Assembly: GCA_030704615.1 (NCBI GenBank)
Contig: CM060731.1
Coordinates: forward strand, 80,538,001-80,602,000
Direction: 5' to 3'
Length of the DNA stretch: 64,000 nucleotides
DNA from: Takakia lepidozioides
Lineage: Eukaryota > Plantae > Bryophyta
In this document: positions 1-58,137 of the stretch, piece by piece
Layout: each line of letters starts with the position of its first letter
Numbering within the stretch: position 1 is the stretch's first letter
Notes under the pieces: model-generated
What the model was told of the DNA's origin: nothing
Databases searched by the model: none
What the model saw: only the letters and a program-made list of their open reading frames with translations
Made by a program: the position numbers and the translations under genes

Positions 1-297
1 GAGATAATTTGTGTTGATTTGGAGCAATTGTCAAGTGATGAGGAGACAAATGCATGATTGCTCGGCAATGGAGATATGGTAGTTTGCAATCAAATCCCAA
101 GGACTAGAAGGGGGATTGATTTGGTGGACAATGACTTGCAAGTTGAGTTGGACCACTCTTGGTTGCACATTGGGGTGGAAAAGAGCAAGAAGATGCCTCT
201 TATGACCACCTAGAGACCATATTTTTGCTTGAGTAGAAGCATAGAAGTCAAGGACTTGCATTCTAGCTCTTCATTACAAACCCTAGTAGTGTATGCT

Positions 298-690
298 CAG
301 ACTATACCTCTGTTAGTATACCAAACAGGAGCTTGTCCCTTTGACTATACCTCTGTTGAGGTATCACCATATGTGAACCATAATGTGAGACTATACCTTT
401 GTTAGTATACCAAACAAGAGCTTGTCCATTTTACTATACCTCTATTGAGGTATCACCATATGTGAACCCTAATCAGCTGAGACTATACCTCTGTTAGTAT
501 ACCAAACAGGAGCTTGTCCCTTTTACTATACCTCTGTTGAGGTATCACCATATGTGGACCCTAATCAGCTCAGACTATACCTCTGTTAGTATACCAAACA
601 GAACCCTCATTTTCAGACTATACCTCTGTAAAGGTATCATCAACATAAGGGACCCTAGCAATCCCAGACTATACCTCTCTTAAGGTATCA
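298..690. repeat. Higher-order tandem repeat (~90-bp unit built of two ~45-bp subunits, core GACTATACCTCTGTT) upstream of gag
   Basis: ACTATACC core recurs about 9 times at ~45-bp spacing; alternate subunits continue AGTATACCAAACA or GAGGTATCACCATATG. Confidence 0.9.
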
Positions 691-719
691 ACAGTGAAAG
701 GACTTAGTGAAATTTAAGG

Positions 720-852
720 GCCTTTGGAGGATTGTTTGGAAGATATTTGAGGGCCCTTGGAGGAGTATTTGGAGGATCTTTGGGGTCCTTGGAGGAGTGT
801 TTGGAGGATCTTTGGGGTCCTTGGAGGATCTTTGGGGTCCTTGGAGGACCCT
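720..852. repeat. Short tandem repeat (GGATCTTTGGGGTCCTTGGAGGA-like, 21/33-bp periods)
   Basis: Several near-identical copies visible; explains the repetitive ORFs at 688-1229. Confidence 0.85.
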
Positions 853-1525
853 TCGAGGAGCTTTGGTGGACAATGTTGAAGAGCTCTTGAAGGATTGATT
901 GAGGGATATTGAAGGATACTTGCCACGGCCATACAAGCGAGTGGATAGAGACAGGAGGGAGAGTGGTGGGATGAGAGCATTCTGGGGTTAGGAATTGCTT
1001 TAGTTTCTCTTCTCCATAGTCTTTCACCCTCTCTGTAGGCCAAAACCTTTCCGTAGGTGGAGGCAAGAGTCAGTCCGGGTATGGGCTGGGGTGTCCTTGC
1101 AGGAGCGACACTGTGGAGTGTTTTTGGTGTGGGGGAGTTGCTGTCTTGATTTTCTTGTGTTTGGATCCCCTCCACACCTGCATGCTTGACTGTGCGCCAT
1201 GTTAGCTTTGTGTGGGCGCTTGTTTTCATAGGAGGTTGGTCCGGATTTGATCACCGGCCAATCCTAGAGTATGCTGTCGGTGGTGAGGCTGAAGTGATGA
1301 CCAACAAGACCACTAGTGTTTCTTCTATGGTGAGGCTGGGTTGATGACCAGCAGACCATAGGAGTGCTTGCGGTGGATGCAGGTGCAGGTACAGGTCTAC
1401 GTTAGAAACCTATTATTCCTGCTTGAACCAGTAGCCGCAACAGGTTCTTTACCCGGTTACCTTGTAGAAAGTGGGGATTAGAGACAGGTTGACAACCGGT
1501 TGGGTTGTGAGTTTTCATCACGGAG

Positions 1526-3142
1526 GTGCCACCAGCTACTGAGGGGAGTGCCGGTACAAGCACCAGCGATACTAGTAGGTACACAAGACAAGGTGTGCGG
1601 TTTAGGCCACTTTCACCTTCAGTGTCTTCTGAGGAAGGTTCAGACTCGGAGTCAGGAGGATTCTCGCCCAGGGTGCAAGTCATTTCCGTGCCATTGTTGT
1701 GGGACACGATGGAGGAGATGTATGGGGCTACCAAGGGGCCACGTAGGTACTCTGGAGCTGTGGGCACCATCGAGCTTGATGACTTTATACAAGAGTTTGA
1801 CAGTTGGTGTGATTTGCAGCAAATGCGCAATCCACAACTGTTTACGCCATTTATGGCGTGGAAGGGGCTATTCCAGCACCTTGAGGGGCCGCCCATGGAT
1901 GATTACCATGAATTTCGGCGGGGACATGCGGTGGAGATTGAGGAGTGGCGAGAGTATTGGTCACCTAACTATGTCTCAATCACAAGAGGCACAAGGGCAG
2001 CGGTGACACCAGCAACTACACAAACATCTCCAACTACAAGCACTAGTAGTGGAACAAGTAGTGCCGGCACTTCTGCAGGTGGTACCAGTTCAAAAGGTGC
2101 TACTACTCCTCCTGCCACAATTACAACACATGTGCCTAGATTCAACCCGGTGGTGGAGTTCTTCCAGGAGTTGCGGAGGAACTACCAAGGTGTATGGACA
2201 GAGAAGCTGCGAAGTTTGCAAGACTTCCAGCGCAAATCCAGTGAGAGCTTGCGAGAAGCCTACACTCGTATGAGGCGCTTGATAAGTGTGACCCAAGGGG
2301 TTACTGAAGCTCAGGCAGTCCAGTTCTGGTATGGAATTTTGGACAAGGAGCTCAAGAGAAGGGTGCGGGATGCAACCCTGTTACAAGCGGCCCAACCCAC
2401 ATTAGCGGATGTGTTTCTGCTGGCTGAGCGGATTGAGCTCAACATGGTGGAGGAACGAGTTGTTACCATTGGATTTGGCAAGGACATGCCTGCACGAGGT
2501 GCAACTGCCAGCCAACACGTACAAGGGACTGCCCAATAGCGTGGTCAGGGAGGCAAGATTGCCCAACCCAAGTTCCATGGAGCTTATAGGGGACCTCAGG
2601 TGCAGAGACCCGTGGCATCTTTTGCAGGTCAACAACAACCAGGGGTGATGTGTTGGACATGTGGAGGACCCCATGTCAAGAGAGATTGCCCAAAGAGTGG
2701 CAGAAGGCCGGAACAAGCACAGCCTGCACAGTTGCAGTGTGGGCATTGTGGCAAGTATGGGCATGGAGATGCCCAGTGTTATGACTTGCACCCTGAGTTG
2801 CACCCAGGCCAGTTCCAAGGGAACAATGGTGGCCGGGGGCGAGGTGGACCAGCCCAGAGAGGACGAGGTGGTCGGGCACAAGGTGCAGGCCAAGGGCAAG
2901 CTCAACATGGCCAAGGACGCGGAGGTCAGGGTGTTGACCAAGACATGGCCAACCGGCTTCAACAGCTAGAGCAGAGGCTCGCTGCCATGGCTACAGCTCA
3001 GGTGGTACCGGCTCCCAGACAAGATGGTCCACCTCCTACTCCTGAGGGAGGAGATATGGGAGGCATGGGATTCATGTGCGGAGCAGCACTACCACTAGTG
3101 CAGGTGGAGTCTGCTGCAGCTGTGACTCGAGGAGCAGCATGA
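1526..3142 (+). pseudogene. gag: Retrotransposon Gag with two zinc knuckles (in-frame TAG at 2537)
   Basis: Capsid-like LQDFQRKSSESLREAYTRM; CWTCGGPHVKRDC and CGHCGKYGHGDAQC knuckles; RGG-rich tract; true start may lie further upstream. Confidence 0.85.
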
Positions 3143-3699
3143 GTTCCTGAGCCACGAGGTGCAGAGGTGGAATTGGATGCACAGCGTGGGGAGGCAAGCC
3201 GTCAGGCGAGGCTTCCTCAGTCATTCACATTGGCGGAGATAGTGTCGACGTCATCCATGGCACCTAGTTCTCGCCCGACTGTTACCGAGGTGGAGGTTAC
3301 TATGCCATTGGGGAGAGCTACACGTGCAACACTGACACCTGCTACCAAGGCTAGTGCAGCCGATGTGTTATTGGGGGCAGCCACCTCTGTGTGTCAAGCC
3401 CCACTGTTCTTGGCAACCATGATTGCGACGCCGGGGGTAAGACCAGCTGCAGTGTTCAGACTAGCAGCAACACTCTGCGAGAGTGGGGAGGTCATTTCAT
3501 CTTCTGCGGAGTTACTGGAAGGTGTAGTGGCAGAGGGATCCTCGGATTTGAGGGTCAAGACTACCACGGCTGCGCCATGGCAAGCTGCAGCTGCCAGGTT
3601 GACGGAGCTGCCAGCTAGGCCAGCCTTTGAGCGCTCCATGGTGACACCTGGAGTTGTCTTGTTAGACAACCAGGGAGGCGTTTTCACTTTGAGTGGACC

Positions 3700-4010
3700 G
3701 GCAGGCAAGAAGTACCGGCCACTGCGGGTCTTGTTGGACTCAGGAGCTCAGCCACTGATGTTGGGCAGAGCTGCTATTGCAGGTTTGGGCCTCATGGAGG
3801 CGGATATGGAGCCTTGTCCTTTCCAGATACAGACATCTCTGGGAGGATCAGAGCAGGCTCGGGGCATGACACGGCGTGAGTTGGTCATTGAACTACAACC
3901 AGATCATCCTGTAGATGGCTCAGTGATGCGAGCCAAGGCCATTGTGACATGCGGTCTCTTACGATGTCCTTGTTGGTGGGGCAGTGTTATATCCCATGGG
4001 CTTCACCCTG
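3700..4010 (+). pseudogene. Retropepsin aspartic protease domain
   Basis: VLLDSGAQPLML active-site motif; C-terminal YDVLVGG motif recovered after a frameshift near 3950. Confidence 0.85.
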
Positions 4011-4439
4011 GACTTTTGGGAGGAGTCAACATCCTACAGGCTTGGATGGCAGTCAGGGGATGGTCGTCGTGCACAGCTCCCTGTGACATTCATTGGGGGT
4101 ATTGCGGCTGCCCAGTGGGGCAAGATGCCAACACTAGCCGCCTTTACAGCTGCAGTTAGTTGGCCTGGAGAGTTGCTGGAAGGCAATGCCCATGCAGAGG
4201 ATGTGCCACCTCCAGCAGAGCATGATGACATGCATGGTACGGCGGAGTTGTCTGCCATGGTTGCTCACACTCCATTATGGGGTACGAGCAAGGATTTGCA
4301 GCAGGCTGCTGATGGACGGGTACAACAAGCCTGGGTAGAGGCCTTCGTACCGTCAGGAGAAGGAGAGTGCGGTGATTGCACCAGGACCACCTCATTGTCC
4401 ATTGGACACCACACCTCTTGTGTGCAGTGCCCGGATGAA

Positions 4440-5390
4440 GACATATGCTTTCTGGACTTGTTTGGCAGGGATCAGCACTGGATTGGTTGCAGTACTGCAG
4501 GCAGGTGTACGAGTTTGACGTTACCTGTATGTGGAGAGGGATGAGACTTCACGACGCGTCTCACTGCGCCATGTTGCTCAGTTGGTACAGCAGTACCTTG
4601 ATTTGTTGCCAGTGTCTGCAGTTCGTGGATACCAACAAGCCTTGCCAGCAGACATTTCGTTGCTGGGGGGCGCAGGATTTGGAGCGGGTTGGCTCCATTG
4701 ATCTGGTAGTGGCAGGCTGACCCTGCCAAGGGCATTCATCAGCCGGGCATGGCAATGGATTGCGAGACTCGAGGACGGGTCTGTTTTGGGAGATGGTGCG
4801 GATTTTGCGCCACTTGCAGCTTCATCAAGCTGTATCTCCAGCATACATCTTGGAGAATGTGCCACTGATGGGTGATTCTCGGGCCAGGGTGATGGCCAGT
4901 GTGCATCAAGTCCGGTCGTGGATTGGGTCAGCAGTGTTGCTGGATGCAGCTGCAGTGGGGTCATGGGCTCATCGTCCACGGCTATGGTGGACTAACTTGA
5001 TGCCACCCGCACTGCTCAAGCGTGCATTTGATGGGGTGCAGCGGCTAGCACACCTCACAGTGGATAGCATTTTGGACACAGGGAGGCAGTCTCAACGTGT
5101 GAGACACGATGACCGTTCGCCTTTGGCAGTAGTCAACAGGGTGGGTCAACCACGAGCAGCATTATCTACACTGCTCAGCTTCCCAGGATCCCATGCTTTT
5201 CGGGATGGTGGACCTGGCCTCTTGTGGGATAGCCAGTTGCAACAATTAGTGGAGCCCAATGCTGACGAGCTTGAGCGGGCGATGGGTTTTACCACAGGTA
5301 CCACGACCGTGCCATCTCTTTCTGAGGCATCACGTCGTCAGGTGTTGGGGCAAGCAATGGATCTCAATTGCTTGACCTGGATTATCAGCT
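4440..5390 (+). pseudogene. DNMT3-like C5 DNA cytosine methyltransferase domain inside pol (2 frameshifts, 2 stops)
   Basis: Reconstructed motifs in canonical order: I FLDLFG/ISTG (4449-4482), II YLYVERD, IV IDLVVAG*PCQG (catalytic PC 4721-4726), V RTGLFWEMVRIL, VI YILENV (4853-4861), VIII AHRPRLWWTN, IX DELERAMGF, X RRQVLGQAMD. Confidence 0.9.
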
Positions 5391-5479
5391 TTGGCGGGCT
5401 TCCCGGCAGGCTTCAAGGGCATCAAGAGATTCAACAAGTAGAGTTCCAAGTAACATTTCGGAGTAACATTGGCGGGCTT

Positions 5480-6290
5480 ACAAGAACTGCTTTGCCTTTA
5501 GTTTGAAGGACTTAGGAGCACTGAAGGGTCAATAGATTCGCATTGAATTGGCTACTGACACGCCAATCTTTCGGAGACCCTATAGATACAGTGACATGGA
5601 GAGGTCCTTGATTCAGATGAGAACTCAGGACCTTTGGGAGGCTGGTTTGGTGGAGTTATCTCGGGGAGAGTATGCTTCAGCCACAGTGATGCCAGCCAAG
5701 AAGGATGTCTTTGGCAATTGGACGGAGAGACGTATGTGCGGTGATTACCGGCCTGTAAATCGTCAGACCAAGTCCGATAGGTATGCCATGCCAACACCAG
5801 AGGAGATCTTTGATGCCATTGGGCATGCCAAGGTCTTTAGCACATTGGATTTACGATCCGAATATCACCAGTTGCCGATCAAGGAGGCGGATAAGCAAAA
5901 GACGGCATTCTAGGGGATCAATGAGTACGGGAAGGATTGCCTATACCAGTGGCGGTTCTTACCATTTGGGCTTAAGAACGCTCCGGCAGAGTTTTCAGAG
6001 AGTCATGGATAGGATTCTAGCAGGGGTGGAGTTTGCTCGGTGCTACATAAATGACATCATCATCTTTAGTGCTACGGTGGAAGAGCATGAGAGACACCTT
6101 CAGGGGGTATTTGAGCGCTTGAGGGCGCACGGATTGAAGTTACATCCGGGAAAGTGCAAGTTTTTCCACAACCAGATTGAGTATCTGGGTCACATGATAT
6201 ATCCTGGAGGATTGGGGGGTACAGTAGACTAAGGTAGAGTCCATTGCACAGGTTCCACGCCCCACGGATGTGAGCTGAGTTCGAGCTTTC
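5480..6290 (+). pseudogene. Reverse transcriptase domain
   Basis: PIFRRPYRYS, RMCGDYRPVN, FSTLDLRSEYHQ, KTAF*, LPFGLKNAP, catalytic YIDD degraded to YIND, KLHPGKCKF, YLGH. Confidence 0.95.
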
Positions 6291-6840
6291 ATGGGGTTAG
6301 CAAACTATTATAGACGGTTTGTTAAGGGATTTAGTGCCATTGCAAAGGCTCTAACCAAGTTGACCAAGGTGGACCAGGAGTGGCAGTGGGAAGATGAGCA
6401 AGAACAAGCTTTTCAAGAGCTCAAGGCGAGGTTGACCTCGGCGCCCATCTTGAGACGACCTATCAGGGGGCGTCCTTTTTAGCTGCATACAGATTGGAGC
6501 ATGCTGGGGCTTGGAGCGGTGCTCACACAAGTGGACGATGATGGAAGAGAGTTCGTAGTGGCTTATGCTAGCCGCTCGAATAACGTTGCAGAGTCTAAGT
6601 ATAGCTCATATGAGGGAGAATGCTTAGCTGCAGTGTGGGCCGTGGCACACTTCAGGTGCTATCTATACGACAATCTCTTCACCCTTGTCACGGATCACCA
6701 ACCACTCAAGTGGTTGATGGAGTCAGACAAGCTTACGGGGAAGCTTGCACGGTGGGCACTCATCCTTCAAGAGTATGACTTTCATGTGGTGCATCGACCG
6801 GGTTTGGTCAATCGCAATGCAGATGGGTTGAGTCGCAATC
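6291..6840 (+). pseudogene. RT connection domain and RNase H
   Basis: FMGLANYYRRFV, F*LHTDWS, GLGAVLTQ, YSSYEGECLAAVWA, TDHQPLKW, RWALILQEYDF, NADGLSR. Confidence 0.93.
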
Positions 6841-7229
6841 CATGCACGAGCCAGCAGGATGACACTGGAGCTCGGTGGCATGGTGAGACGGACGAAGAGA
6901 TGGTGCCCGGATGGCATGCATCTGCATTTCTGTGTATCTTGGCAGCGGAAGGCCAGGTTGGACCTGCAACAAAGATGACTACAGATCAAGTGTCTGAGGA
7001 CCCTGAGGCTAGCAATGAGCAAGGTGGTGCCAAAGATATACATGAGGATTCAGTTGTGTTGGACTACCTCCGCACTGGAGACACTGCAGCCACTGTGACT
7101 GCCAAGGAGAGGGATCGGATCCTACAACGAGCCAAGAGGTTCAAGTGGGAGGGGACACACCTGCTCCGAGTGTGGGAGGATGGTCGAGTGAGGATTGTGC
7201 CTCACCCAACACAGCGGGCACGGTTAGTG

Positions 7230-8280
7230 CGGCATGCCCATGAGGAGTTGGGGCATTTTGGGGTGCGACGCACTCATAGTCTACTGCAGGGGCAATATTG
7301 GTGGCGTGGTATGCACACAGAGGTGCAACAATTTGTGGCTAGGTGCATGGTGTGTGACAGGGTGCGTGCTTCATTCAACGCCCCTACTCCACAATTGCAC
7401 CCTCTTCCGATCATGGGATTGGGCTACAGGTGGAGTCTTGATTTTGCAGGGCCGTTGCCACTGACCATGCGCCACAACAAGTACGTGTTGGTGATGGTGG
7501 AGCACTTCTCCAAGTGGATTGAATTGGTTCCATTGCCTGATAAGGCTAGTGAGGGAGCTGCGTATGCATTCTTGGATTGTGTGCTTAGCCGATTCGGTGC
7601 TCCAGCTGAGGTACTCACGGACCAAGGGAGAGAGTTCTTGGGGGAGTTTCAGGCTTTGTGTGAAAGGCCTTGATAGACCACCGCACCACTTCTCGGGATC
7701 ATCCTGAGGCCGATGGCTTGGCAGAGAGAGTTGTTCAGACAGTAAATAGGGGTTTGCGCAAGTATGGTTTGTAGAAGGGACACCTAGGAGATTGGGACCT
7801 TCAGTTACCCTGGTTAGCCATGGGCTACAGGTTCAGCAAGCAAGCATCACTTGCCTCCTTCTCACCATACTTTCTTCTCTTTGGCCGAGAGCCGGATTTG
7901 CCTACATCCATTCGCAGAGAAGCTGCTACAGTTCTTAACCTTGACGATCCGGACGTGTGGGCGCGTGCATGTGAGCAGCGTGCAAAGTTGTTCAAGAAAG
8001 TCATGCCTATGGCTTTTGAGAACCTTGCCATTGCACAACATCGTGATACGTTGAGGTATGCTACCATACGTGGTGGGGGCTATCGTCCTGGGGTTCGGAG
8101 ATTCAACCCTGGTGACTATGTCTATCTGCAGCAGACTGCTCCTACGACATTGGATGTGACTGCAGGACGTGTTATTTTGAGGGTTCGAGAGGTTTTGCTC
8201 TCAGGCGTCTTGGTCTTGGAGGGTTGGGATGGCATAACTTGGAAGGACCATGTGCGTAATTGTGCGCCATGTCACCTTCC
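7230..8280 (+). pseudogene. Integrase (HHCC zinc-binding domain, DDE core, C-terminal region)
   Basis: AHEELGHFG...CMVC; WSLDFAGP, VLTDQGREF, PEADGLAER; frameshift near 7665, TAG at 7772; SPYFLLFGR. Confidence 0.93.
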
Positions 8281-8335
8281 GAATGTCGATGGCAGGATTG
8301 ACCCAAACGTGGCAGTGGTATCTGCAAGTTTGAAA

Positions 8336-8470
8336 TGCATGTTGTGTGGGTCTGCTAGAGGGGCAGCCACCATGCTGGTGTGTGATCGATGCTCTAGAGG
8401 TTGGCATATGGGATGCTTGACTCCACCTCTTGAGATGGTTCCTGATGGGGATTGGTTATGTCCGTATTGC
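8336..8470 (+). other. PHD finger (C4HC3) fused to the integrase C-terminus; pol stop at 8477-8479
   Basis: CMLC-x9-MLVCDRCSRGWHMGCLTPPLEMVPDGDWLCPYC. Confidence 0.93.
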
Positions 8471-8721
8471 ATTGGATAGTGAGAGTGGATACAACCATGG
8501 AAGGCTAACAAGAAATGCAAGGCCAAGCTACTAGGAGACCAACACACGAGATCCTGACTCAAGTTCACAGATTGCAAGACGGCGACTAACGATGGGGTTG
8601 CTCTTGTACCCGGCCTCTTGGTCTATAGAGTTTGAGTACAATAGGGACAGTGATAGAGGACTTAGTACGGCTGTGGCTATTACATCTTGTAGCTATCTGG
8701 AGTTAGAGGGACCTAACCACC

Positions 8722-8736
8722 AGCTAGGGGGGCGAT
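8722..8736 (+). promoter_or_regulatory. Polypurine tract
   Basis: AGCTAGGGGGGCGAT immediately before TGTGG. Confidence 0.7.
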
Positions 8737-9334
8737 TGTGGTATAGCTTTCTAGGATTGTGTGCTTAGATTATGTGGTGGACAACGATGTATGTTGTGGC
8801 ACGATGCTTAGGTGCACGACAGCTGTCATGGTTTTAGTCATGGTTATCTAGAATTACCTACTTCTAGTTAACTAGGACATTTTAGATATTTTATATTTAT
8901 ATTTTGTGTGTTGGGACTTCATTTGGTCTCACATGCCAAGTGAGGTGTCGAGCCTCACTTGAGACATGGAGATAGGTTTTCCCTTTTTGAGTGTTGAGGA
9001 GGTTCATCTTCTTGTAGTTGAGCCTCCATGAGCTTCTCTCACCTCCATAGCTCTAGGTATTGAGAGGGAGTGTGTTGAGGGCTTTGTAGGGTGGATTCCT
9101 TTAGCAAAGGTGCCCTTGGCTTGACTTAGTTTATGTGATAGAGTGGATTTCACTTGGAAGGACTAGGGCTTGTTCTTCATGTGATTGCTTCATGCTTTGA
9201 GAGCTTTCATTGTCTTCTACTTCTCTCATTTCTCATCTCTTATCATTGTGGTATAGCTTTCTAGGATTGTGTGCTTAGATTGTGTGGTGGACAGCGATGT
9301 ATGTTGTGGCACGATGCTTAGGTGCACGACAACA
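8737..9334 (+). repeat. Putative 3' LTR (~598 bp) with an internal ~85-bp terminal direct repeat
   Basis: Starts TGTGGT after the PPT, ends ACAACA (5/6 inverted match); 8737-8821 is repeated at 9247-9331; no 5' LTR in the window to confirm. Confidence 0.65.
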
Positions 9335-11563: not shown

Positions 11564-13634
11564 TCACACACCTTTGTTATAATGAACCTCATTAATCGGA
11601 TTCCCAAATCTATCAACTCTATTATGAAGCAATGGCTCCAATTTCATGACATCCACCGATGCCTGCTGCTTGAAAACACCGAAGCAAAGTGGCACAAATA
11701 TCTGGATGGATGCACCCACCATGGCCATCAGCGTCGGTATCCTCAAATATGGCCTGTTTGTGTACATCCTTGTGCGTTCCAATCTGAAAAGCATCATAAA
11801 GAGATGCACGGCAAAGGCCTTTTGCTGTCGGATTACCATTCCATTAAGTTATACATAATTTAAAGAAGCAAACGGCACTCATTCAGATATCTTGGTTCAC
11901 CTAGTCTGTAGAAACTAGTTTCTCATGTCTACAGAGAATGTTTTTATTCTACCCTGAAGTGAATGGGTGAATGTACTCATGAGATGTGTTTGCAGTAGCC
12001 TTGTGGCCATGGATCCTGTGCCCTTTGGGCAGATCGAGAAGGAATCTGAGAGAGGGAGGGAGAGAGTATGTACTCAATAAGACTTTGTTTGCCGCAACCT
12101 TGTGGCCATAGACCCCTTACCCAGTTTTTACGAGAGAGAGAGAGAGAGAGAGAGCTGCCACAGTTGTAAGGTTGCGATCGAGGTTTTGGTTCATAAGTTT
12201 GGGAAGTTTCTCCTCACCTTGCTAAAATGTATAATATGCTCAATACACTATGGGGCAAGGAGTGAGAAACAAACACACTAAAACAGAACAGAAAATATAA
12301 CGGGAACAAAATGATACACATGATAAAACCATCTGCAAGGGCACATACCTATGCATGACAAGAGGTGGAATCACCAAAATTGGAGCAGCTGCAGCTATCC
12401 GGCCAGCGATGCAGGCACTCACAGCCCTGGCACCAGCGAGCCGGCTCTGGCCAAGTTCATCACCATTACTGTCCAACACCTTGATGCCCTCCAGAAACTC
12501 ATCTCTGCGTGTAATTCCCAAATTCAGCAAGTCGGCTGCTGCAACCGCACAAAATGGAACTATTCTCCTTGCTACAGAAGCCCTGCATTGCTTGAGATAA
12601 TGCAGTGGTGCTGTGTAAGTGTGGTGAGTGAAATCTCTGTGTGGCAACATTTGCCATATCACCTGTGGAAGATAAGTGGGGTTACAGTAGCATCAACATC
12701 ACTCCTTCATGCTGTCAATGTTAGCACTTAGTCTGACACCAATCCCTATAGACCTACTGTCATTGGAAAAATTCCGTGTGTGGAGGGTAGAACTCCACAG
12801 TAGGCTATGGGGAGGGTTGATACCCCACTGGGTATATACTATAACTGAAGGGTCCATGGTGGCCAATATATCCATGGAGTGGGCACAGGGTATACACAAA
12901 CTTACCCCCTCACCCTCAGCACCCCACCTTTCTCTCTCTCTCCAGCTTGCTCGCCTTCCCAAACCTGCTCCCTCATTTTTGAAAGAGGTGGTAAAGGACC
13001 ATCATTAAATTATCACGGGAAGAACTGTAGGTATTGAAGAGAGAGAGAGTTTCTCCTTGACTACCCTCATGGACCATTTATCTGTCCACTTAAGATTGAA
13101 ATCATGACAGATAGCATAGCCTTCAACAGAGGTACAAGGTTTAAACAAACTTTACCAGGGTCTGCCAGGGGGAACCTTATCCAAGAGAGCATGGAGACCA
13201 ACAGCAGCACCCACAGAACTGGCGCTTGCACCTACATAAGCTTCAACAAGTTTCTGAATCCCTTCCTCGTTCGAAGCATTCCGATTGGCATAATAATGCA
13301 AGCAATTGTATGTCTGATTAAGCCATTGGGCGCCCACATTTTGCATACATCCCCTGGCTGATAGCATCAGAGTATCCAGAACCAGATTGCAAGGGATCAC
13401 AAAGGAAAGACGGAGAGGGAGGAAGATCTTCTCTCCAGTATCAGGATGGACAATTGCATCCTTAACTTTGCGGGCTTGCTCCAATTTTTCTGAGGGGACT
13501 GAGAGGTCCCCATTTTGATGAGACTTCAAAAGCTGGACTGCTGCATCAACTTGGGAATCTGTCACAAATGCTGTTTGAATGTCCATCATGTTGAAAATCC
13601 TTTGAACTCTCGCCCAGTACGTGCCTTCATCCAT
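11564..13634 (-). CDS. Sideroflexin (mitochondrial tricarboxylate/serine carrier family); 3 exons 13634-13156, 12582-12349, 11783-11564; ~310 aa
   Basis: DAIVHPDTGEKIFLPLRLS, QWLNQTYN..YYANRNAS, RRIVPFCAVAAA, GQSRLAG, C-terminal YNKGV; GT-AG splicing keeps frame (933 nt). Confidence 0.88.
11968..12152 (-). repeat. Two copies of dispersed intronic repeat family A plus (GA)n
   Basis: AATGTACTCA..AGAC..TGTTTGCCGTAGCCTTGTGGCCAT matches copies at 18445, 54100, 54445 and 54708. Confidence 0.75.
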
Positions 13635-16600
13635 GCTCCCCTCTTGGTCAAGTGAAAGAATGTTCAATAACAGAATTGTCTGGGTTCAAGGCCTAACAGA
13701 GACAGTCAATATGCATTCAGAGACAGGATAGTGCCAGAATAAGTGGGAGATCGCTTTGAGAGAGTGAACCGGAGCCTTGCACCATCTCCACATGAGTTGA
13801 TGTTCCTACAAGAATACAGCCTAAGTCAGTGGAATGTTCTCTACCCTGGTATGTAGTACTGGGCTGAGACAGTCAATCTAAGACTATGAGACAGCGTGAC
13901 ACTCTGTTATCTCCCCACTGTCTTCCTAAGTTCCTGGAGGGTGGAGAACAAAGAAAAGTCCAGACTTGAACACAAAAGAAAGAGGGAGAGAACCTAACTA
14001 ACAAAAGAGGGCTGAAGAAAGCTCCCCATTTAAGACTGAAGAACTCTGTTCTTGATCATTTTGAATAGAACAAATGCTGAAATGCCATAAACTTATGAGT
14101 ACAGAGAGTTTTTTTCTTCAAAAGGAGATGCAATGTATGCCCTTTACCTTGAAGCAGCTTTACTTTCATGAACATTTCAGACACAACAAACTCCTTAGAG
14201 CTGCAAAGTCTGGAAAACCTGTAGAACTGGTTTGCAATAATACGCTACTTAGCCATGTCCAAAATGTTGGACTCAATATGAGACAGTCTTATCTTTGAAT
14301 ACCAGCACATTCTTGTGAGAGTTTGTCAAAAACTGTCAATTACATAACCTTAAGGACTGAATGATTGCAAGTTACTGTCTGCTGAAAATCCTGATGCTAA
14401 CTAGAACCCCCCATTGAACCCTTCTTGTGAATAGTATTCGATGTCCTGAAGCACGGAGGAGACACACGTAGAACTTACTATACCGACCCAATGAAGATCC
14501 CTCCAGCGACAAGGTTGTGGTAAAAGGCAGACAGCCCAGAACGAAAGAAGGTCCCTGGTGTTCAACTCCTTGTCATGTGAAAACCAGAGAGGGCGGGAGA
14601 GACAACAGGTGCTGATTTTTCTACATTTCAGAGTGGGTTACCACTGATCGCGGAACAGTTAATATAGTCCCGACGCAAGCCTTTACTTCATCTCACCAGC
14701 ATATAAAACTGTGCCCGGATGTACCACAGCCGACGATAACCCAGTCGGAGGGGCTTCATACTTGTGGCTGGTAATCCAAAGCGTACATGTTTTGTCAGAG
14801 GAGAAATCATCGTACGCAAGGATCGCGAGCTTAAAGTTCCATACAACCGGCCCGAAGAAGAATTCTACTCAGTTTCTACCTGGTTCAGGTTTCCCAGCGA
14901 AATCCAACCAAATGTAGACCTATCCACCTCAATCCCTTACACTAGCACAATACTTTGTGACACTGGTGGAAATCACTGGAAAGGCCGAGTACTGTCACGT
15001 AGCTAGTGCAATTGAGCTAGTTAAGAAAAGATTATCAATTGGTGTTCCGCAACTTCATAGACAATACTTGGAACAAAAAACAAGTTCCGGCCCGGCACAC
15101 TCCAGACTCCAGACCTGGGTATGAAACGCACGAAGAACTGAGGATAGAACTTTCAATTCTCATGAGCTGAATCCAGCCAATTGGCACAGAGACCCACCCA
15201 CTTCACGTCTCAGATTAAAAATCCATAGACACATGCAGCCAAAGATGCAGACATTAGCACATAGTTTCATTTCATATTCAACAAGAAATAGGCTTTTCGA
15301 GCATCCACCACCATAACTGCATTGGAGTGAACAAGACTTGCAACATAAATGCCAACCCACCAGAGATTTGATGGAGCTTCACCACCCACTGCTGCAGCTT
15401 GCATGAGCAGGTTTGATGAACAGCCGCCAGTGAGAAGGGCGAAGATTTCCATAATAAACTCCGGAGTTTAGTAAGTGAGCGAGAAGACCTAAAAGGACAG
15501 CTCCATATAGTAAAAAGTCTGGGGCTGAACAGGAGCCCTCCATTCTGTCTGTCAGTGTTCATAATTATGGGAATCTTCGGATTCTCCAGGGGCCATCCAA
15601 TGCGCCCAGCCTTCCATTGGAGAACAAAAGTTTTCGGTTTGCGCTGTCTTTTTCCTTTCAAAAAAGTAGTAGAAAGCAGAAAAGGACGACAACATAAAGA
15701 GAGACAGAGCGTCTAGGAGAGAAAAGTCAAGTAGAGCAGATGAACTTGAGAAACCGTGTAGGGTGCATAGTGGTGACGCGACGATTTGTACACTGAGTGC
15801 ATCAGCAAAGGTGATCTTGTGAGTTACCGAAGTAGACATTGTGCAGAAGTCATCCAGCTTTGGGGAAAGGTCAGTGATAAGTCATTTGGTTGAATACAGA
15901 TCCCATATGGGTCACAAGTAATAGTCACAAGTGGGTGAATTTATTTCAGACAACGGTCTTTTCATCAAAGATGCTAAAAGATAAATTATCTCCTTGCAAT
16001 TTGATCAGTAGCCCCTCAAACCGTATTTCATAGATGAAGTCTGATGGGCTGAAGTCTGGGCCCCAGAATGAGAGCTGCGTTATGATTCCCTGCAAGTCTG
16101 GAATTTCAACCAGCAGCCCAGAGCCATTCTTGCAGACCCATTTTGGCTTACCAAACTGCATTCCGATTGGCATTGAAGATCACAGATGTGAAACTAGCTG
16201 TTAGTGGCATTGCATGACATCACAATATACTTTTTACTCTAATTTAGAGTACTTCAAAGCTGAACTTCTGTTGCAATAATTTTGCCATCCTCACATGAGA
16301 GATTTTAAACGGCGACTATGACCAAAGCTACATACATCTGTGGACAAAACCGGGAGGAAGTCATCGACTGGGCACAGCTCCATGACACTAGTGTGATTAG
16401 GCAAAACCACACGTTGAGAACCTTTGCTGCAGTGAGGCTATGAAAAGTGGCCTTATTGGAGTGGACCCTTGAAGCATGTCAGATTGGGTCCCTATCTTCT
16501 GTTATTCCCTCTCCCTCTTACATCCTCCTCTCTTCACCCCACGAATATTAGAACACTGAGAATACTGTAGTCCCACATTATAGTCAAGATCTGTAACCTG

Positions 16601-17469: not shown

Positions 17470-20400
17470 TTACTTGATAGACAGGCGGAGCTTCATGTCC
17501 TCATACACAAGGTAGGTGATGCTGGCAGCGGGTGCCACCTTCAGCATGTTGGGCAGCAAGCCTTTGTAAAACCCACGCACACCCTCATGCTCAAGGGTAC
17601 GTCTGAACACATCCACCATGCCCTTGTATCCGCCTTCTACCTTGAGTGGCTGTGCTTGCAGTCTGCATTTCCAGCAAGAACCTTGCTTAGCATCCCTGTC
17701 ACTCGGAGCTGCTCTCTTGCATATGGCCTCTAAGATAAGGTAACACACCTGGTGCGAATGAGTTGCAATGGGTAGACACATGTGGCACCAAGGGCTCCTG
17801 AGACTGTCCCACATCCAAGCTGCACCAGGGCTCCTGGCCCTGCACATGACCCATTACCTCCTGTTCTTTCACTGTATGACCAGACTCCACCCTATGCACC
17901 ACAGGGATGTGTATGGACATAGCTTACTTGTGTATAGGTGTACAGAAAACATCTGCAAGTGTTGCATGGGAAGCTTTCACACATTTGCAGTAGTGTGCTC
18001 TCAGAAGAGGCCCCAAATTCCCTCATTGATTATGGGTGCCATCCTTAGCTCTTAATGCATGACATGTAGCTGTAGGGTTTTCATGCTATACATAGATACA
18101 GCACTTTGCAGTTAATTCTGACACGTAATCCATTGATTGCAACAGTGCTGTCACCAGCTTCCACCACAATAATTTCCCTCATGCCAAGGCCTCATAGGTG
18201 GATGGGTGACGAGGGAGGACCAGTGGCCATTTTCTGAGATACTATGAAAGGTGACAGGCCACCTCTTAGTTCAAACTTTAACAGGGGGACGCGTTTTGAG
18301 GCCATCCACGATTGCATTAATGAGAAAGGCTACAAAGCTAATCCATGCCACGATCTTAAAATATGAAGTTAGTGGCCTCAATCATTAAGTCCTTGGCCAT
18401 GCAGCACAACCTTGATGGAAATAGAATCCCGACCTATAGCTAGGAGAGAGAGAGAGAATGTACTCGTAAGACGTTGTTTGCCGTAGCCTTGTGGCCATTG
18501 ACCCCGGGAACGCCCACTTTGAGTGGAACATAGGAGGGAGAGAGAGAGAGAAATGAAATGAAATGAAGTGGAGCTTTATAATGTCCGTGGAAAGCTCATA
18601 GAGCTTATGGGACAAAATGGAGAGAGAGACAGTCTTGCCCAAGCAACCGTAACTTATGGTGTCACTTCACCTTGACATGACTACTGCCTTCTGTTTGGAA
18701 GGTGGACACCTTCTAACGGCTGTAACAGGGGCAATGCGGTTGCCCAACCCTCTCCGAAGGACTTCAAAGTCCCCAGGTACCCACACAATCAGTAACCCCC
18801 CCTATTATAGTTGAGTTGGCCATAATGCGTGACATCTATGTGGCTTTGAACCCACGAGTGCCCTAACCACTGGGCCATCTGTTAGATGCTTGAGCGGACA
18901 CATATCTGATTGGTGGAGGAAGTCTATCGGCTTTTCACAATTTAATGTTGACATCTACAGGGGTTGTCAATTACCATATCATTGCCCAATTTAAGGTGAA
19001 TGGTGCTACTATTTGCTGCAAGACTTGCTATTGAAAAAAGGGAGACTCTTGCCGAAGCAAGCGTACTGATGGTGTTACTTCACCCCGAAGGGCTACTGCC
19101 TCCCATTTGAAAGGTGAACACCTTCAAACGGCCGTAATCGAGACAATGAGGTTGCCCAACCCTCCCACAAGGACTCAAAAGTCCCCAAGTACCCACACAT
19201 TAAGTAACCGGTCGACACAGGTACCCCCCTTTTATGGCTGGGTTGCCCATAATGGGTGACATCCAACATACACGTATGTGGCTTCGAACCCACAACCTTT
19301 TGTAAGGCGGCCTTGTGCCCTAACCACTGGGCCATCTGTTGGATGCTGACCTGCTATTACACTAGCACCAACAACTGAAATGTGGGCTATTCATGTCCAC
19401 CATTGAATTGGAGCTAAATGTGACAGATATTTTTGAGTAAGGCCAACCCTGTCCTTGTATGGAGAGGCTGTGTTAAGAAAAATCTTTCCTAGACTTGAAT
19501 GTGGCAATTGATGATGGCGATAAATCCTAAGATATACAGCATCTCAAATATATGATCCCTCAAGAGCATTAATATTCTGACCCTTTATTTCCTTTGACAT
19601 TAAGGGACACTGCCGATGCTGTTAGTGATGCATCCCACTCATTCCATTTTGAGCTCCCTGACAACATAAGAATCTCTGCAAAGACATACCTGTATCTAGT
19701 GGTACAAACTGGGCAGAGAAGTCCTTGAGAGTTTCATACACCGTCAAGTCAATAGCTGCATATGGCACCATACCCAGCAGGGATGGAACCAAGCCACGGT
19801 ACAATGCTCTCGGGCCCTCGTGCACGACAATGTCCCGTGAAAGCGACAGTAATGCTGGTGCTGTGCCTGGTGAACTGTGACACTGCAAGCGTGTTTTGAT
19901 CAGATCCAAAGGATAGATGGCCGTCTGAGCAATTGCACCTGCACAAAATAAGAATAGTTAGCAAGTGCCAGGGGAGAGAGCTGGGATGAGCTTTCAAAAG
20001 CTCAAGGAGCTTAGGGGACAGTAACCCATAACAAACAAAAGCATTAGAATTGAAATGGCTGCAGAAAGATGGATGACCTCCTGAGGTTAAGCTGCTGGCT
20101 CTCAAAACTAGATGCTCCCGCCAGTGATGAGAGAAAGAGATGTTAGACTTTAATTACGCGAGACAAGAAGGAGGGGGTCATGTTTGGACAGAAACTACAG
20201 ATGGGCACATACAAGGCGGGAACATCTGCATTCAGACATTTGGCTAGACGTAAGAGAAGAGGTCAGCTCCCACAACTCTTGTACTTTCTATGGAAGTTAC
20301 TGCAGGAGAGGGAAAGGAGGGTTGGCCTAAAAAGCATAAACCTGCAACGCCTCCTGCAACCAGCCGCCCCCAAGTTCCGATCTCGCCTTGCTTCCCGTCA

Positions 20401-21639
20401 CCCACCACAATGCCTTTCATCATTTCATAGGCATAGAATTTAATCGCCGACTCTGGGGCTACTTTGAGCACGTTAAGACCATTCCCTCGAAAGAACCCCA
20501 TCACACCATTATTTTTGTAAATGTGCAAAAGGCCGGCGATCACACCCTCACCATTGGTCTGCACTTGCAGAAGCACCTTGAGGCGGTCCAAGGGAGCTGT
20601 GGCAGTGCGGCTCAGCGCCCCAGCCACTGCACCTGCCAGCAGATAACGGGCAGCATGGTGGCCACCAATGCCCTCAGGAATGACGGCCTGTTCTCCGATG
20701 TCCACCAAGGACACCTTCTCCCAGTACTGATAGATGTTAGCTAGTGTGGCTTCGTGTGGAAAAAGCAACAGGAAGTCACGCCACTCACTGTAAGTGATCC
20801 TTCCATTCTTGTCCTGGTCTATGTGCTGCACAAATGATGCTAGCTCCTCATCTCCTATTTGAATCCCTGCGCTCATAAACATTCCACTTCAACTCAGTGG
20901 AGCAAAAAGGGGGAAGGGACAGAAGATTTCCATCGTTCTAGAGTGCAGAAAAATTTGCCACAGAAAACCTCAAATAAAAGATAGGAATGGTGACACAGTA
21001 CTCCGCCAGCCCCTGTCTAGTGCCCAAAGCCATAGGATCCCATTGTTTCGTACTACCTCTGGGGCAATTCAAGAACAAGGTAGAATCTAAAGCCCTGTCA
21101 TGCTGCAGCAATCAAAACTGAGGACACATGACACTACTTCATGAACTGGAAAAGCGACCTCTACTTCCATCCAGCTGCGCCAATCTAAATGCCCATTCAT
21201 CACTATCCTTTCACCCCATGCGGGTGTACATATCAATGTCCGAAGACAGAAAAAACCGACCTGCATGCAAGAGAGCATCTCGAAGCTCAGCGGGCTCGAG
21301 AGCTCCGTCGTCGGTCACATCGATGGATTTGAAGAGATTGTAAAGTTCTCCTTCTTTATCGTCCATGTATTTCCGGAATTCGGCAAAGTCAATGTGTCCA
21401 TCATGATTGGAATCACAGACCTCCAGCAAGTCCCGGGCATACTTGTACTGCAAGGGAGTCGAGAGTGATCGTAATCCCGCCTCTATCTGCGTGTGATCCA
21501 AATAGCCAACCTTGGCGCTGTCAAACGAATCAAACAGATTGCGAATTCGTAGCTCCCTCTCATCCTTTGTCTCCTGGGCTGCTGCCTCCACCTCTCGGGC
21601 CTTCTCTTCTCCTCTGTCCCCAATGCTACTACCTTTCAT
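17470..21639 (-). CDS. Calcium-binding mitochondrial ATP-Mg/Pi carrier (APC/SCaMC type); exons ~21639-21261, 20866-20342, 19938-19690, 17839-17749, 17662-17470
   Basis: EF-hands ([26 protein letters not shown]) followed by three carrier repeats ([29 protein letters not shown]). Confidence 0.92.
18445..18630 (-). mobile_element. Family A repeat plus a 5'-truncated LINE 3' tail ((CATTT)n) flanked by (GA)n
   Basis: Reverse complement of 18551-18620 matches the LINE 3' UTR at 26704-26772. Confidence 0.8.
18636..18889 (-). mobile_element. tRNA-derived SINE, internally deleted copy
   Basis: Similar to 19049-19346; box A TGGCCCAGTGG, box B-like GGTTCAAAGCC. Confidence 0.75.
19049..19346 (-). mobile_element. 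tRNA-derived SINE, near full-length (~300 bp)
   Basis: Pol III box A TGGCCCAGTGG (19334-19324), box B GGTTCGAAGCC (19290-19280), stem CATCCAACA/TGTTGGATG; five related copies in the window. Confidence 0.8.
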
Positions 21640-24327
21640 CTCTCTCGCCCGCACCCCAAAGAGTATCCACCAGTACAAACTATATGTTTGTGAGAATGAG
21701 TATAATCTTATGATACAGCTCAGCAACGGCTCCCTGCTTACACCCAATCCCTCCCCTCCTACATCCTTACATTGCCTCCGTCCCTCCCTCTCTCTCCTCC
21801 CTCCTTCACTCTTCAATCGACTTGATTTGGGTATGCAGCGAGATTAAAAGCAATAATGTTACCCGGCAGTGCACAGCTGCACTGCGGTGCAAGCCGCTGT
21901 CGCAGGAGAGAGCGACCTCGACAGTAGAGAAGGGTGTGGATGAAAACGAAGGGCTCATCGATGAATAATGGCTTTCATTGATGAGGTAGTTGTAACGGAT
22001 GGACGCAGAGAGTCCTCATGGATGGAAAGTATGGTTGTACAGACCTTCCGGATTGAGAGCAGCAGTCAAAATGGCCCACCTGCCAACGAGCAGCCATATA
22101 TGTACAAGTGGCCGCTGCATCATAGCACGCCACACTGTCACCCAATGGACCCTTGCCTTGGAAGTCTTTTTGTAATAGAGAAAAGGAAATCGCAGAAGTG
22201 TTGTTTGTGTGTTTGAAAGACAGCGGGGTGTTAATTTCTTGTCTGTATGATGATGAGAAGCAGGCGAGGGGATTCAAGGTTGTACTGGGTTGTACAAACC
22301 ACAACCTTGTAGGGTTCTTGAAAGAGTTGTTGGGGTGGGGGGGTAGAGACGTTACGTTTTGGTTTCTGAGTTCGGAGGAAGGCACGGAAGGGTGTGCGCG
22401 TAGGACCATATCTGCACAAATGCATTATCAGTAGCATTGTTCTGCCTGCGCCTCCATGGGATCTCTCCAGCTCATATTTCAGGTTCGTCTCTCCCTCTCT
22501 TTGACTGACCAAATTCTTGATTCCCTTCCTCAGTTTGAGTACAAGACATTTATTTAGTCATGTATGAAGGTAAACCCTAATGTGTGACATTCAATACAAT
22601 CCTATGGGAATGTGCGGATCATTGTTCGAAGTCTGAATGCCGGCATGGATGACGAAATTGAACCTCACATTGCGTTTCACTTTGCAGCCCGCTGCATGCT
22701 CTTATGTGCCCTCTCAGATAGCAATGGCTTGGTACGCCAGGGTTTTCCGCGATTGAAGCATGTCTAGTTTTGGAGGGACTTGTTACTTTCCACATTGTTG
22801 GTAGTAAGATTGCAAAAAATTTGTGCTGCACAGCGACATCTGCCTGCCTTATGGGCAAAGGGGGTTTCTCAGCAGGCTTGAAATTTGATGGTCAGGCCAG
22901 GAATCACCCCTTACAAGGTTTTCCCCCGCCAAGTGAGATTACATGTCTAAATTAGCTGATTCTCTTTCGTTGTCTGCCAATCTGCACCACTGCTGCAACG
23001 TGGAGGGTTATGCCACCATTCTACTGGAGGGGCGATTTGTTTCCCCTGACAGAAAAGTCCCTCTTATATGGAATTCTCTGATCTGGGTGTGGCCTGCTCT
23101 TCCAGCTTGAGTCTCCCTGCCTTTCTTCTTTCAGGAATAGCATGGTGATTATTGAACCTCTGTTTTACCCATATGTTCGAATTTGGAACAGCTGATCCTC
23201 CCATTGACTGCTGCTATCTTGTAACTCTGGGTTTACTGCACCTGTCCAATATGTTCAGAATCAGAACTGTTGCAGGATAACATACATGGTTTTCTTTCCA
23301 ATCTATGAAAACAGGGAGCTATTCACTCTGATCTTAATGACATAGTGTAAAGTACCATAGTATACAATTTTTGAAGCTCTGCCCCATCTTCTTCTTTCCT
23401 GAAGCCAAGAAACAAACAAATCACACTCGTGGAACCTGATAATGCAGTCATTGTCAGCTCCCTCTGTCTTTATTTGTAGATGTCTCAAAATTCTGTCGAC
23501 TAAGTTGCAGTTTGAGTTATGCATTTTGTGAAGGTCGGGGTTTAGTGAGTGCATGTCCCAGGGATCAGTCGCAGTGATGAGTTCTTCATCACAGGATACA
23601 ACACTGGTGAAGCAGGTGAAGCCAACCCGCATAATATCAGCCAGCCCCACCCTGAGCATGTCAAGAGGGGTGAGCCTTGTGAACAACCTTCCTTGTGTTT
23701 CCTTATGGAGGGTTAAGCAGTATGTGCCTTGCCCTGTTCCTTTTCACGACAACCTCCTTAGTATGTTGTTGAGAGAGTATTAAATGGAATGAATGACCAA
23801 CATCCACTGACTGGGCACTTTCAACACATATTCAATGATGCCATTCTCAATACCAATTAAGTACTGTTGGGCTGAAGAATGGAAGTGTCTATTGGCAAAG
23901 AGTTGGATAAGAGTTGGATAAGAGTTGCCTTTGGTTCTTCCCTGATCCACCACACTTGAAAATTTTGTACTTAAGGGGAATTCTTCTGTGTACACCAAGA
24001 ACCAGACTTGGATGAAAATAATGTGCTGTCTTTAAATCCTATCACATGCACCTTTGCATTGCTTACCCTGTGTTCCGAATGAATGTCTGGGGAGAGGGAA
24101 GAATGAGGGAGGGGGTTGATTGTGAGTACCCCCAGTTCTTGAATAATTATTCCTGCTGGGGCGTAATGTATTTGTGTGGACAAAGTAATCGTGGGATTTC
24201 ATATACATTTATCAAGTAGTAGCACAGGTCTGATGCCATGTTTTGTTCATGATTACCTCAAATGCACTTTACTTTATATGGTTTCTCCTGTGAGTGCCTG
24301 AGACCATTGTATTGTGTGCTGGTGGCA

Positions 24328-31862: not shown

Positions 31863-31958
31863 TCTGCTATCAACGACATCTGCTTGTGTTCCCAGGTCTG
31901 AGGCAGTTGTTGGGGAGGCATCCATTGCTGTTTGCGGTGGAAGGAGTCAGTGGAAGAG

Positions 31959-57773: not shown

Positions 57774-58137
57774 AGTAGGCAGCCACGTCGGCGGGTTGTT
57801 AACTAACTTGACGATGCGCTGCTACAATTATAGTTAGCGACAGTTAAGGGTTATCATTGGGAGTGGATGATGGATGATAAATCGGTGCATCCGACTTGGC
57901 AGGTAGGCCACCTGAACCACTCCACAGTGGTGTCTGCTCGTCTGCTCGTCTGGACTGGACCAGTCAGTGCATGTCCCTCCCACCGAGGATCGTAACGCCT
58001 GCTGTGCTGTGCTGCTGCTGCTGCTCCTCTTACGATTTCCGTATCCTTGTTTATCTCTGGTTTCTTGGTTTCTGGGTTTTTTTCGACTCTGGAATTTGAG
58101 CGTAGTTAACTTCTGCCTAGAGGTGAGAGATTTTGCA

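Follow-up and report, generated by a model that had tools for sequence, protein, structure and literature searches.

A decayed Ty3/Gypsy retrotransposon in Takakia lepidozioides, whose land-plant-type relatives carry a conserved stop codon between a DNMT3-like methylase and an integrase PHD finger

The 64,000-nucleotide (nt) stretch of DNA analysed here (the window) comes from Takakia lepidozioides (assembly GCA_030704615.1, contig CM060731.1, positions 80,538,001-80,602,000, forward strand). It contains a retroelement whose coding region runs on the + strand from 1709 to a stop codon at 8477-8479 and encodes, in order, Gag, a zinc knuckle, a protease, a C5 cytosine methylase (DNMT), a reverse transcriptase (RT), RNase H, an integrase and a PHD finger. 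Profile matches on this strand bear out the domain order proposed in a first-pass annotation. The matches are weak for Retrotrans_gag (E-value 0.003) and the protease (0.03), with 1e-8 for the C5 DNA methylase, 3e-33 for RNase H, 2e-12 for the rve integrase and 7e-11 for the PHD finger. No chromodomain was matched in the domain search of the window. The order gag-protease-RT-RNase H-integrase with a DDE (rve) integrase is that of Ty3/Gypsy elements, and the nearest named proteins are from Marchantia, Calypogeia and Sphagnum (identity up to 72%). The surrounding DNA carries intron-split eukaryotic genes. The element is a Ty3/Gypsy retrotransposon, most likely of the Gypsy-DNMT3 clade, and a dead member of a high-copy family, and its leader and coding parts are as follows.

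295..690, + strand: tandem 92-nt repeats, a candidate 5' leader whose membership in the element is uncertain
1709..2536, + strand: capsid part of Gag, in frame +2 and ended by a premature stop at 2537
2636..2812, + strand: two CCHC zinc knuckles of Gag, with weak profile support
3632..3949, + strand: N-terminal part of the aspartic protease (DSG at 3737-3745), which resumes past a frame break near 3950
4447..5395, + strand: DNMT3-like C5 cytosine methyltransferase, motif I disrupted near 4467, ENV at 4853-4861
5392..5473, + strand: 82 nt of foreign sequence replacing the ~435-nt DNMT-RT linker
5473..6229, + strand: RT, broken by stops at 5533 and 5911 and a frame break near 5992
6240..6902, + strand: connection and RNase H, with stops at 6276 and 6480
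7044..8299, + strand: integrase (H2C2 finger, rve core, C-terminal part), with a frame break near 7663 and a stop at 7772
8330..8470, + strand: PHD finger (C4HC3) at the integrase C-terminus; the open reading frame (ORF) terminates at 8477-8479

The window copy is dead. Nine premature stops interrupt the segments that were scanned, and the frame shifts near 3950, 4400-4467, 4665, 5992, 6214-6230 and 7663. The damage includes a stop (4718-4720) immediately 5' of the PCQ of methylase motif IV (4721-4729) and an altered RT catalytic motif (YIND at 6044-6055 versus YIDD in intact relatives). Gag and protease do share frame +2, as the first-pass annotation stated, but this frame is interrupted by two in-frame stops (2537 and 3140). 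Its view of the breaks as point lesions fits the stops and frame changes elsewhere but not the DNMT-RT junction, which has been replaced (82 nt versus 435). The alignment of 80,925 public contig records from one sequencing run (X1) to the element indicates a high-copy family. Most family copies on public contigs have sense codons at 2537 and 4718-4720, and the stop at 2537 is private to the window copy. Family depth over 295-690 is about tenfold below that from ~982 onward. The splice-acceptor-like motif TGCAGGTGCAGGT occurs upstream of gag in the window (1378-1390) and in the related locus L048 (945-957) and is missing from 26 of 26 other loci tested. Separately, a contig from run X7 with a second organism label (B) carries an apparently single- or low-copy element ~97% identical to window positions 4138-8764; organism A has very many copies. 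The match between organisms A and B may reflect either that the two are closely related or that the element was transferred recently.

In the window copy the DNMT-RT junction is missing. The distance from DNMT motif X to RT is 77 nt in the window versus 349-483 nt in 51 relatives, and other copies of the window's family continue into the linker at 5391, one 5009-nt contig having 435 nt in place of the window's 82 (5392-5473). A metagenome scan retained the best 80 of 93 related loci (L numbers below), and the junction set comprises 51 loci spanning DNMT-RT, 35 in frame and the other 16 frameshifted, decayed copies. All 35 in-frame junctions have a stop codon between DNMT and RT, 16 to 23 codons 5' of the conserved motif that opens pol. 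Where the homologous stop could be located (49 loci), it is TAG in 34, TAA in 13 and another codon in two. The single polyprotein ORF of the first-pass annotation is therefore not confirmed in the window's lineage. The intact locus L048 has the corresponding arrangement (ORF1 976-5085, ORF2 5086-8229), and database Gag-protease-DNMT proteins (P numbers; e.g. P0002, P0004, P0033-P0039) terminate 96-147 residues past motif X without an RT. The conserved stop between DNMT and RT assigns the DNMT to the Gag-protease ORF and the PHD finger to the integrase ORF, whether pol is expressed by readthrough or separately. Apparent DNMT-RT fusions such as P0006, P0009, P0013 and P0054 were rejected as ab initio gene models spliced across the junction.

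The sequence after the stop is TAG CAA CCA in L026, TAG CAG TTA in L047 and L048, TAG TAG CCA in L056 and TAG CAA CCC in a Sphagnum-like family. The first three loci thus match the hexamer context UAG CARYYA exactly, and L056 and the Sphagnum-like family each depart from it at one base. This readthrough context is kept in four divergent lineages, and synonymous sites are near or at saturation among the window, L026, the Sphagnum-like copies and L048. In the same loci, CARYYA follows none of 662 lesion stops. The 71 codons 3' of the stop have a ratio of nonsynonymous to synonymous substitution rates (dN/dS) of 0.15, indicating purifying selection. RNA folding after the stop and at the polypurine block gave no significant structure (z 0.35 to -1.7), and neither a pseudoknot nor a hairpin is proposed. 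CARYYA after UAG drives readthrough in plant viruses, and gag-pol readthrough in murine leukaemia virus (MuLV) is ~5%, according to the accessible parts of PMC4132726 and PMC2194720. The conserved stop is probably read through at a low rate, since UAG CARYYA is the plant-virus signal, the frame and context are conserved and the first AUG after the stop in L048 lies inside RT. Several observations weigh against this. The stop of the window's own family is deduced from relatives, as the junction is gone in the window copy. Many of the loci are near-duplicate assemblies, so the counts overstate independence and the stop rests on four lineages. The Sphagnum-like CAA CCC matches five of the six hexamer bases, all six of which matter in a mammalian assay (PMC4132726, as far as its text was accessible). 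Start-like codons also occur within five codons of the stop (AUG at +3 in the Sphagnum-like family and +5 in L047, GUG in L026 and L048).

The stop might instead be tight. Pol would then arise by reinitiation at the nearby AUG, from a promoter of its own or from a spliced RNA, and DNMT and PHD would never share a chain in land plants. The AUG codons just mentioned and the imperfect CAA CCC signal speak for this, as do the transcript-assembly protein P0237, a 'complete' pol-only ORF, and a similar junction in Tca2, which showed new pol expression and not readthrough (PMC2194720, in the part seen). However, GUG replaces AUG in L026 and in the intact L048, and both CARYYA and the reading frame are preserved across divergent lineages. 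Moreover, Pol normally requires fusion to Gag for packaging. A tight stop is thus improbable, and leaky termination is the reading followed below.

The methylase itself is DNMT3-like, as the first-pass annotation had it, according to profile scores and to the fold predicted for an intact relative. A profile built from 26 domains of the family scored 91 bits against DNMT3A and 79 against DNMT3B, versus 42-55 for DRM-type and at most 41 for bacterial enzymes (HhaI 41). The predicted L048 domain (mean predicted local distance difference test score, pLDDT, 94.7) has DNMT3A/3B as its best Foldseek matches (E 1e-19), and the domain is non-permuted. Of 201 near-complete DNMT domains, 198 retain the catalytic Cys and 199 the ENV Glu, and the two Arg of motif VIII are present in 196 and 198, so the expected conservation of the catalytic Cys and ENV among copies holds; catalytic and S-adenosylmethionine-binding positions are all kept at 88-99%. 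Comparison of L047 and L048 gave dN/dS values of 0.12 for the methylase, 0.09 for the protease and 0.08 for RT, indicating purifying selection. From these sequence features the methylase looks active in the family. Short methylase-motif matches on viral contigs (three, all lacking retroelement domains) were discarded.

A different role for the DNMT was considered, in which element DNA is not methylated: the enzyme would target host chromatin or RNA, or would be a structural or nucleic-acid-binding component of the particle. The residue before the catalytic Cys is Glu (GWECQ) in place of Pro in 86 of the 201 domains, which is unusual for C5 methylases. No element-specific decay signature was found: the CpG depletion of the element does not differ from that of its flanks in the window, and C-to-T decay in paired repeats (CG 26/97, CHG 11/38, CHH 72/711) fits host methylation and singles out no self-made mark. 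The isolated domain of a related algal element, KnitGypsy, gave no DNA methylation in yeast, a result that its authors called inconclusive (PMC5890265). The C-to-T decay and the yeast result also weigh against methylation of the element's own DNA. However, the catalytic and cofactor-binding positions have been kept over a very old clade, and SymbioDIRS, a retrotransposon with a related DNMT3, methylates CG de novo according to the same text (PMC5890265). A DNMT that leaves element DNA unmethylated is thus very unlikely, and a functional methylase that acts on it is the reading retained.

An unfiltered protein search yielded 1047 clusters at E <=0.001, of which the best 150 were examined; no named Klebsormidium sequence was among the matches of the protein searches. 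The members have two layouts. The DNMT precedes RT in one (named members from Marchantia, Calypogeia, Sphagnum and Closterium) and lies between RNase H and integrase in a single ORF in the other (Scenedesmus, Volvox and Tetrabaena). The DNMT shares the ORF of RT in further members (P0222, P0242 and P0081) and at none of the 35 in-frame junctions of the land-plant-type loci. An RT-RNase H tree (90 rows; quick IQ-TREE with the Shimodaira-Hasegawa-like approximate likelihood ratio test, SH-aLRT, only; value 99) and a DNMT tree (147 rows; FastTree; support 94) both separate the two layouts. Because the trees agree on the layouts, they fit co-inheritance of RT and DNMT with one relocation. Both are midpoint-rooted without an outgroup and omit 17-18 spliced gene models or near-duplicates; midpoint rooting does not decide the ancestral DNMT position or between single and double capture. 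The family is, judged from these sequences, an old green-plant clade that includes chlorophytes, streptophyte algae, liverworts and mosses.

The co-occurrence of a DNMT3-like writer and a genuine PHD finger in this large, old clade is supported by the protein sequences. DNMT and PHD lie in one ORF in 100 proteins, a set drawn in part from a query that included the PHD, and four of these have the DNMT-before-RT order; the first-pass expectation that some members would hold both domains in one ORF is thus confirmed. Where the integrase end is complete and leaves enough space for a PHD, all 39 DNMT-query proteins carry one, as do 26 of 29 loci with enough space, the three misses being rearranged or interrupted copies. 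The PHD is lacking in three proteins with a DNMT (P0190, P0216 and P0221), and the pol ORF P0306 has a PHD and no DNMT.

The best PDB matches of the PHD finger are CHD4, PHF12, KDM5B PHD1, ATXR5 and KDM5A PHD1. Among 173 family fingers, Gly two residues before the His in 95% leaves no cage Trp, and the residues by which KDM5B PHD1 binds H3 R2 and A1 (roles taken from the accessible part of PMC4225485) are mostly kept (Asp 96%, Pro 98%, Gly 84%, Trp 90%). The finger therefore has the features of a reader of unmodified H3 of the KDM5 PHD1, ATXR5, BAZ2 and UHRF1 type: no aromatic cage, an Asp for R2 and a PxGxW pocket for A1. The residue that speaks against this assignment is the K4-reading acid (KDM5B D308), which is not conserved and is missing in the window. 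An acid before the first Cys is present as Asp at -4 in L048 and 10% of the 173 fingers and at -3 in about half, and in the window there is none. The conserved pocket suggests with good probability that the PHD binds the unmodified H3 N-terminus, and its sensitivity to the K4 state is uncertain. Its position on the integrase is that of the chromodomain in chromoviruses, and use of the PHD in target choice is a proposition with roughly equal weight for and against.

The first-pass annotation had likened this pair to animal DNMT3, in which the catalytic domain is coupled to an ADD domain. Under that explanation the PHD would dock on H3K4me0 and direct or switch on the methylase at the insertion site. 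The frequent presence of both domains in one ORF, the near-constant occurrence of the PHD and its unmodified-H3 class agree with it, and a ribosome that passes the stop would still make one full-length precursor containing the two domains. However, the two domains lie in separate ORFs on either side of a conserved stop in the land-plant-type lineage, likely in unequal amounts, and the DNMT occupies two places across the clade whereas the PHD is always on the integrase. Each also occurs without the other, as in the proteins above and, for a PHD without DNMT, in Gypsy-7a_cRei (figure legend of PMC9940879). No ATRX or DNMT3 ADD chain was found among the best 60 of 83 PDB matches, and no ADD (GATA-like finger plus PHD) adjoining the catalytic domain was found; the finger is a plain PHD at the integrase tip. 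Neither coupling of the PHD to the methylase nor the analogy is thus supported; we regard a joint reader-writer as unlikely and prefer two separate functions.

The right end of the element contains the following features.

8692..8733, + strand: conserved block ending in a polypurine tract (G run 8727-8732)
8735..8821, + strand: repeat B, first copy, 87 nt
8818..8827, unstranded: palindromic junction of B and A, GACA-gc-TGTC, in which the right and left ends are abutted with a 2-nt spacer
8824..9244, + strand: repeat A, 3' copy (no 5' A copy is present in the window)
9245..9331, + strand: second copy of repeat B (98% identity with the first copy), forming the right end of the element

A 54-nt block (window 8692-8743; L055 10192-10245) has 87-93% identity in a comparison of the window with 16 Sphagnum-like loci, although past it the repeats can hardly be aligned; the block is presumably a conserved cis signal. 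Relatives are arranged as A-body-B-A-B or A-body-B (eight loci), and the window shows B-A-B. The two B copies in the window differ at 2 of 87 sites despite the heavily decayed coding region, which may be due to the small sample or to gene conversion. All seven loci with both ends (six insertions) start with TGTC and end with GACA, or one-base variants, with a 4-bp duplication outside; a copy close to the window's (two contigs) also has a 4-bp target duplication. The polypurine tract, TG...CA ends and 4-5 bp duplication of long terminal repeat (LTR) elements are thus present. Two complete identical flanking LTRs are not, and B precedes A in none of 18 left ends. The junction is conserved in L048, and its 17 nt are identical in the window and L080, from a distant sister clade. 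The rve integrase and the 4-bp duplications set the element apart from DIRS and other tyrosine-recombinase elements. One exact junction match on viral contigs (L084), with none of the element's domains, was judged a chance match.

The sequence that follows the 5' A can pair with the middle of A, over 10-17 nt in 11 of 20 loci (controls <=9), and no TGG start follows the 5' repeat. This complementarity points to self-priming of the minus strand; no complement of A was found in window positions 1-1700. Tcn1 elements are likewise predicted to self-prime, per REXdb (PMC6317226, in the part seen). Minus-strand self-priming just after A, combined with a polypurine tract just before B, would yield a BA-body-BA complementary DNA (cDNA). 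From such a cDNA it follows that the integrated forms would be circular permutations opened at the junction: A-body-B and A-body-B-A-B may derive from one- or two-repeat circles opened at the internal GACA-nn-TGTC, an origin for which we see an even chance. Foamy-virus integrase cleaves palindromic 2-LTR circle junctions (PMC1180852, as far as accessible). Three points argue against the circles. A plain two-repeat circle should also yield A-B-A-body-B, which is seen in 0 of 18 left ends, an asymmetry with the observed A-body-B-A-B. A-body-B can also come from recombination between two B copies. The junction motif is found in only one of eight sister-clade loci, several of which end early.

A putative life cycle can be assembled from what was observed: the domain order, the stop and its context, the conserved catalytic positions, the purifying selection, the agreement of the RT and DNMT trees, the structure of the ends and the 4-bp duplications. 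Intact land-plant-type relatives would express a Gag-protease-DNMT ORF and, past an in-frame stop, an RT-RNase H-integrase-PHD ORF. Low-rate readthrough would let the methylase be made in bulk alongside the capsid protein, at the level of Gag. As in Gypsy polyproteins generally, the element's protease would free the domains from each other. Many DNMT copies may then be packaged and the cDNA methylated inside the particle, for which the balance tips slightly in favour. The PHD would act separately, tethering the integrase to unmodified H3 tails. As a whole, a leaky stop separating Gag-protease-DNMT from RT-RNase H-integrase-PHD, a Gag-level methylase acting on the element's own cDNA and a PHD that tethers the integrase form the account that we favour with moderate confidence. 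A broader version, that a clade as old as green plants self-primes, methylates its cDNA with a Gag-level DNMT3, opens a circle with its DDE integrase at the built-in palindrome and inserts on unmodified-H3 chromatin by way of the PHD, is tentative and rather doubtful. If it is true, this circle-cutting integration would be a route that was not found described for LTR retrotransposons in the literature searched.

Elsewhere in the window, host genes lie at 13152-13685, 20244-21843, 31902-32555, 52620-55344 and 57916-58479. The identified products are a sideroflexin, an EF-hand mitochondrial carrier, a p23/CS-domain co-chaperone with a GGM repeat and an eIF2B subunit; the ORF at 57916-58479 resembles the start of a small heat-shock protein by eye and has no Pfam match. 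A 4.4-kb unit at 43995-48415 with long inverted repeats (~450 nt in four pieces, 88-97% complementary) and no ORF >133 amino acids resembles a non-autonomous DNA transposon of the foldback or Mutator type. Dispersed repeats occur in inverted orientation at 18534-19333 and 26704-29226 (81-88%), and a 75-nt repeat at 12077, 18466, 54158 and 54724, two copies of which end in GA runs. These are possibly short interspersed nuclear element (SINE)-like or miniature inverted-repeat transposable element (MITE)-like.

The results turn what was a curiosity of one alga into a clade of chlorophytes, streptophyte algae, liverworts and mosses. Copies exist in the genetic model Marchantia, and L048 is an intact relative. 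The stop predicts the place and amount of the methylase and makes the role of transposon-encoded DNMTs directly testable. The ends of the element suggest that a DDE integrase acts on an internal junction, which is relevant to the question of whether circles of retroelements lead nowhere or are intermediates. LTR finders that expect two full LTRs will miss such elements. Gag-protease-DNMT ORFs are annotated as hypothetical genes in bryophyte genomes and may inflate DNMT3 counts.

PHD-bearing Chlamydomonas elements were reportedly described by Craig in 2021. Three parts of the picture are already in print, as far as the sources were accessible: a Gypsy DNMT with the idea of self-methylation (PMC5890265), a PHD-bearing Gypsy (PMC9940879) and a chromodomain-plus-DNMT element (10.64898/2026.05.21.726589). 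The searches, which left subscription journals, Repbase Reports, theses, figures and bioRxiv supplements largely outside, found no paper on a land-plant Gypsy with DNMT3 and PHD, on the stop or on the ends. Within that literature, no earlier description was found of the stop between writer and reader, of the chlorophyte layout with its matching trees, or of the evidence on junction, duplication and self-priming.

The closest known system is KnitGypsy-Dnmt3 of Klebsormidium nitens (de Mendoza et al. 2018, PMC5890265), compared by its published description only, from which we infer that it belongs to the same clade. It is likewise a Gypsy element, its DNMT3-like domain is non-permuted and evolves under purifying selection, and its split repeats (A-coding-B-A-B, called 'DIRS-like') accompany Gypsy domains. 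Self-methylation of its cDNA was proposed, not demonstrated. However, it comes from one alga and has the DNMT in the Pol ORF, whereas in the land-plant-type family the DNMT ends the Gag-protease ORF and the range covers liverworts, Sphagnum and Closterium plus a chlorophyte sister clade. The accessible text of that paper contains no 'PHD', stop, target duplication, junction palindrome or priming, although its Fig. 4c may draw a PHD or two ORFs. EpiLTRs also combine a reader and a DNA methyltransferase in one LTR element, but with a chromodomain, DAM and a DNMT4-sister enzyme in Cymbomonas and Euglena, not PHD and DNMT3; the part of that source seen names streptophyte 'Gypsy-DNMT3' as a separate acquisition (10.64898/2026.05.21.726589). 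Gypsy-7a_cRei of Chlamydomonas shares a histone-reader PHD in a Gypsy polyprotein, with a proposed insertion bias, but has an ordinary LTR layout and no DNMT listed in the part seen (PMC9940879). Fusions of transposable elements to PHD fingers are common, according to 10.1101/2021.11.30.470311 and PMC8557442 in the parts seen. Chromoviruses, including Tcn1, carry a reader as accessory domain, but a chromodomain and not a PHD, in an ordinary LTR layout (PMC6317226).

Animal DNMT3A/3B share the catalytic fold and motifs; the window's family lacks ADD and PWWP, and the PHD that it has as reader is of the plain kind and sits on the integrase, ~1000 residues away. A single in-frame stop is also present in MuLV gag-pol, SIRE1 pol-env and Tca2, and the hexamer context is that of tobacco mosaic virus-type UAG CARYYA (PMC2194720, PMC4132726, in part). 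Compared with MuLV, SIRE1 and Tca2, the stop of the window's family comes after the protease and an accessory enzyme, which places the methylase on the abundant side. Palindromic abutted ends serve as a recombinase substrate in split-repeat DIRS/PAT elements and in the circle junctions of IS3 and IS30. Foamy-virus 2-LTR circles, in the accessible description, provide such a junction as well (PMC1180852). In the window's family, by comparison with all of these, the junction is a permanent component within the repeat, and the element is found integrated as a permuted version of the cDNA that would be expected; unlike tyrosine-recombinase DIRS/PAT elements, the family uses a DDE integrase and makes 4-bp duplications.

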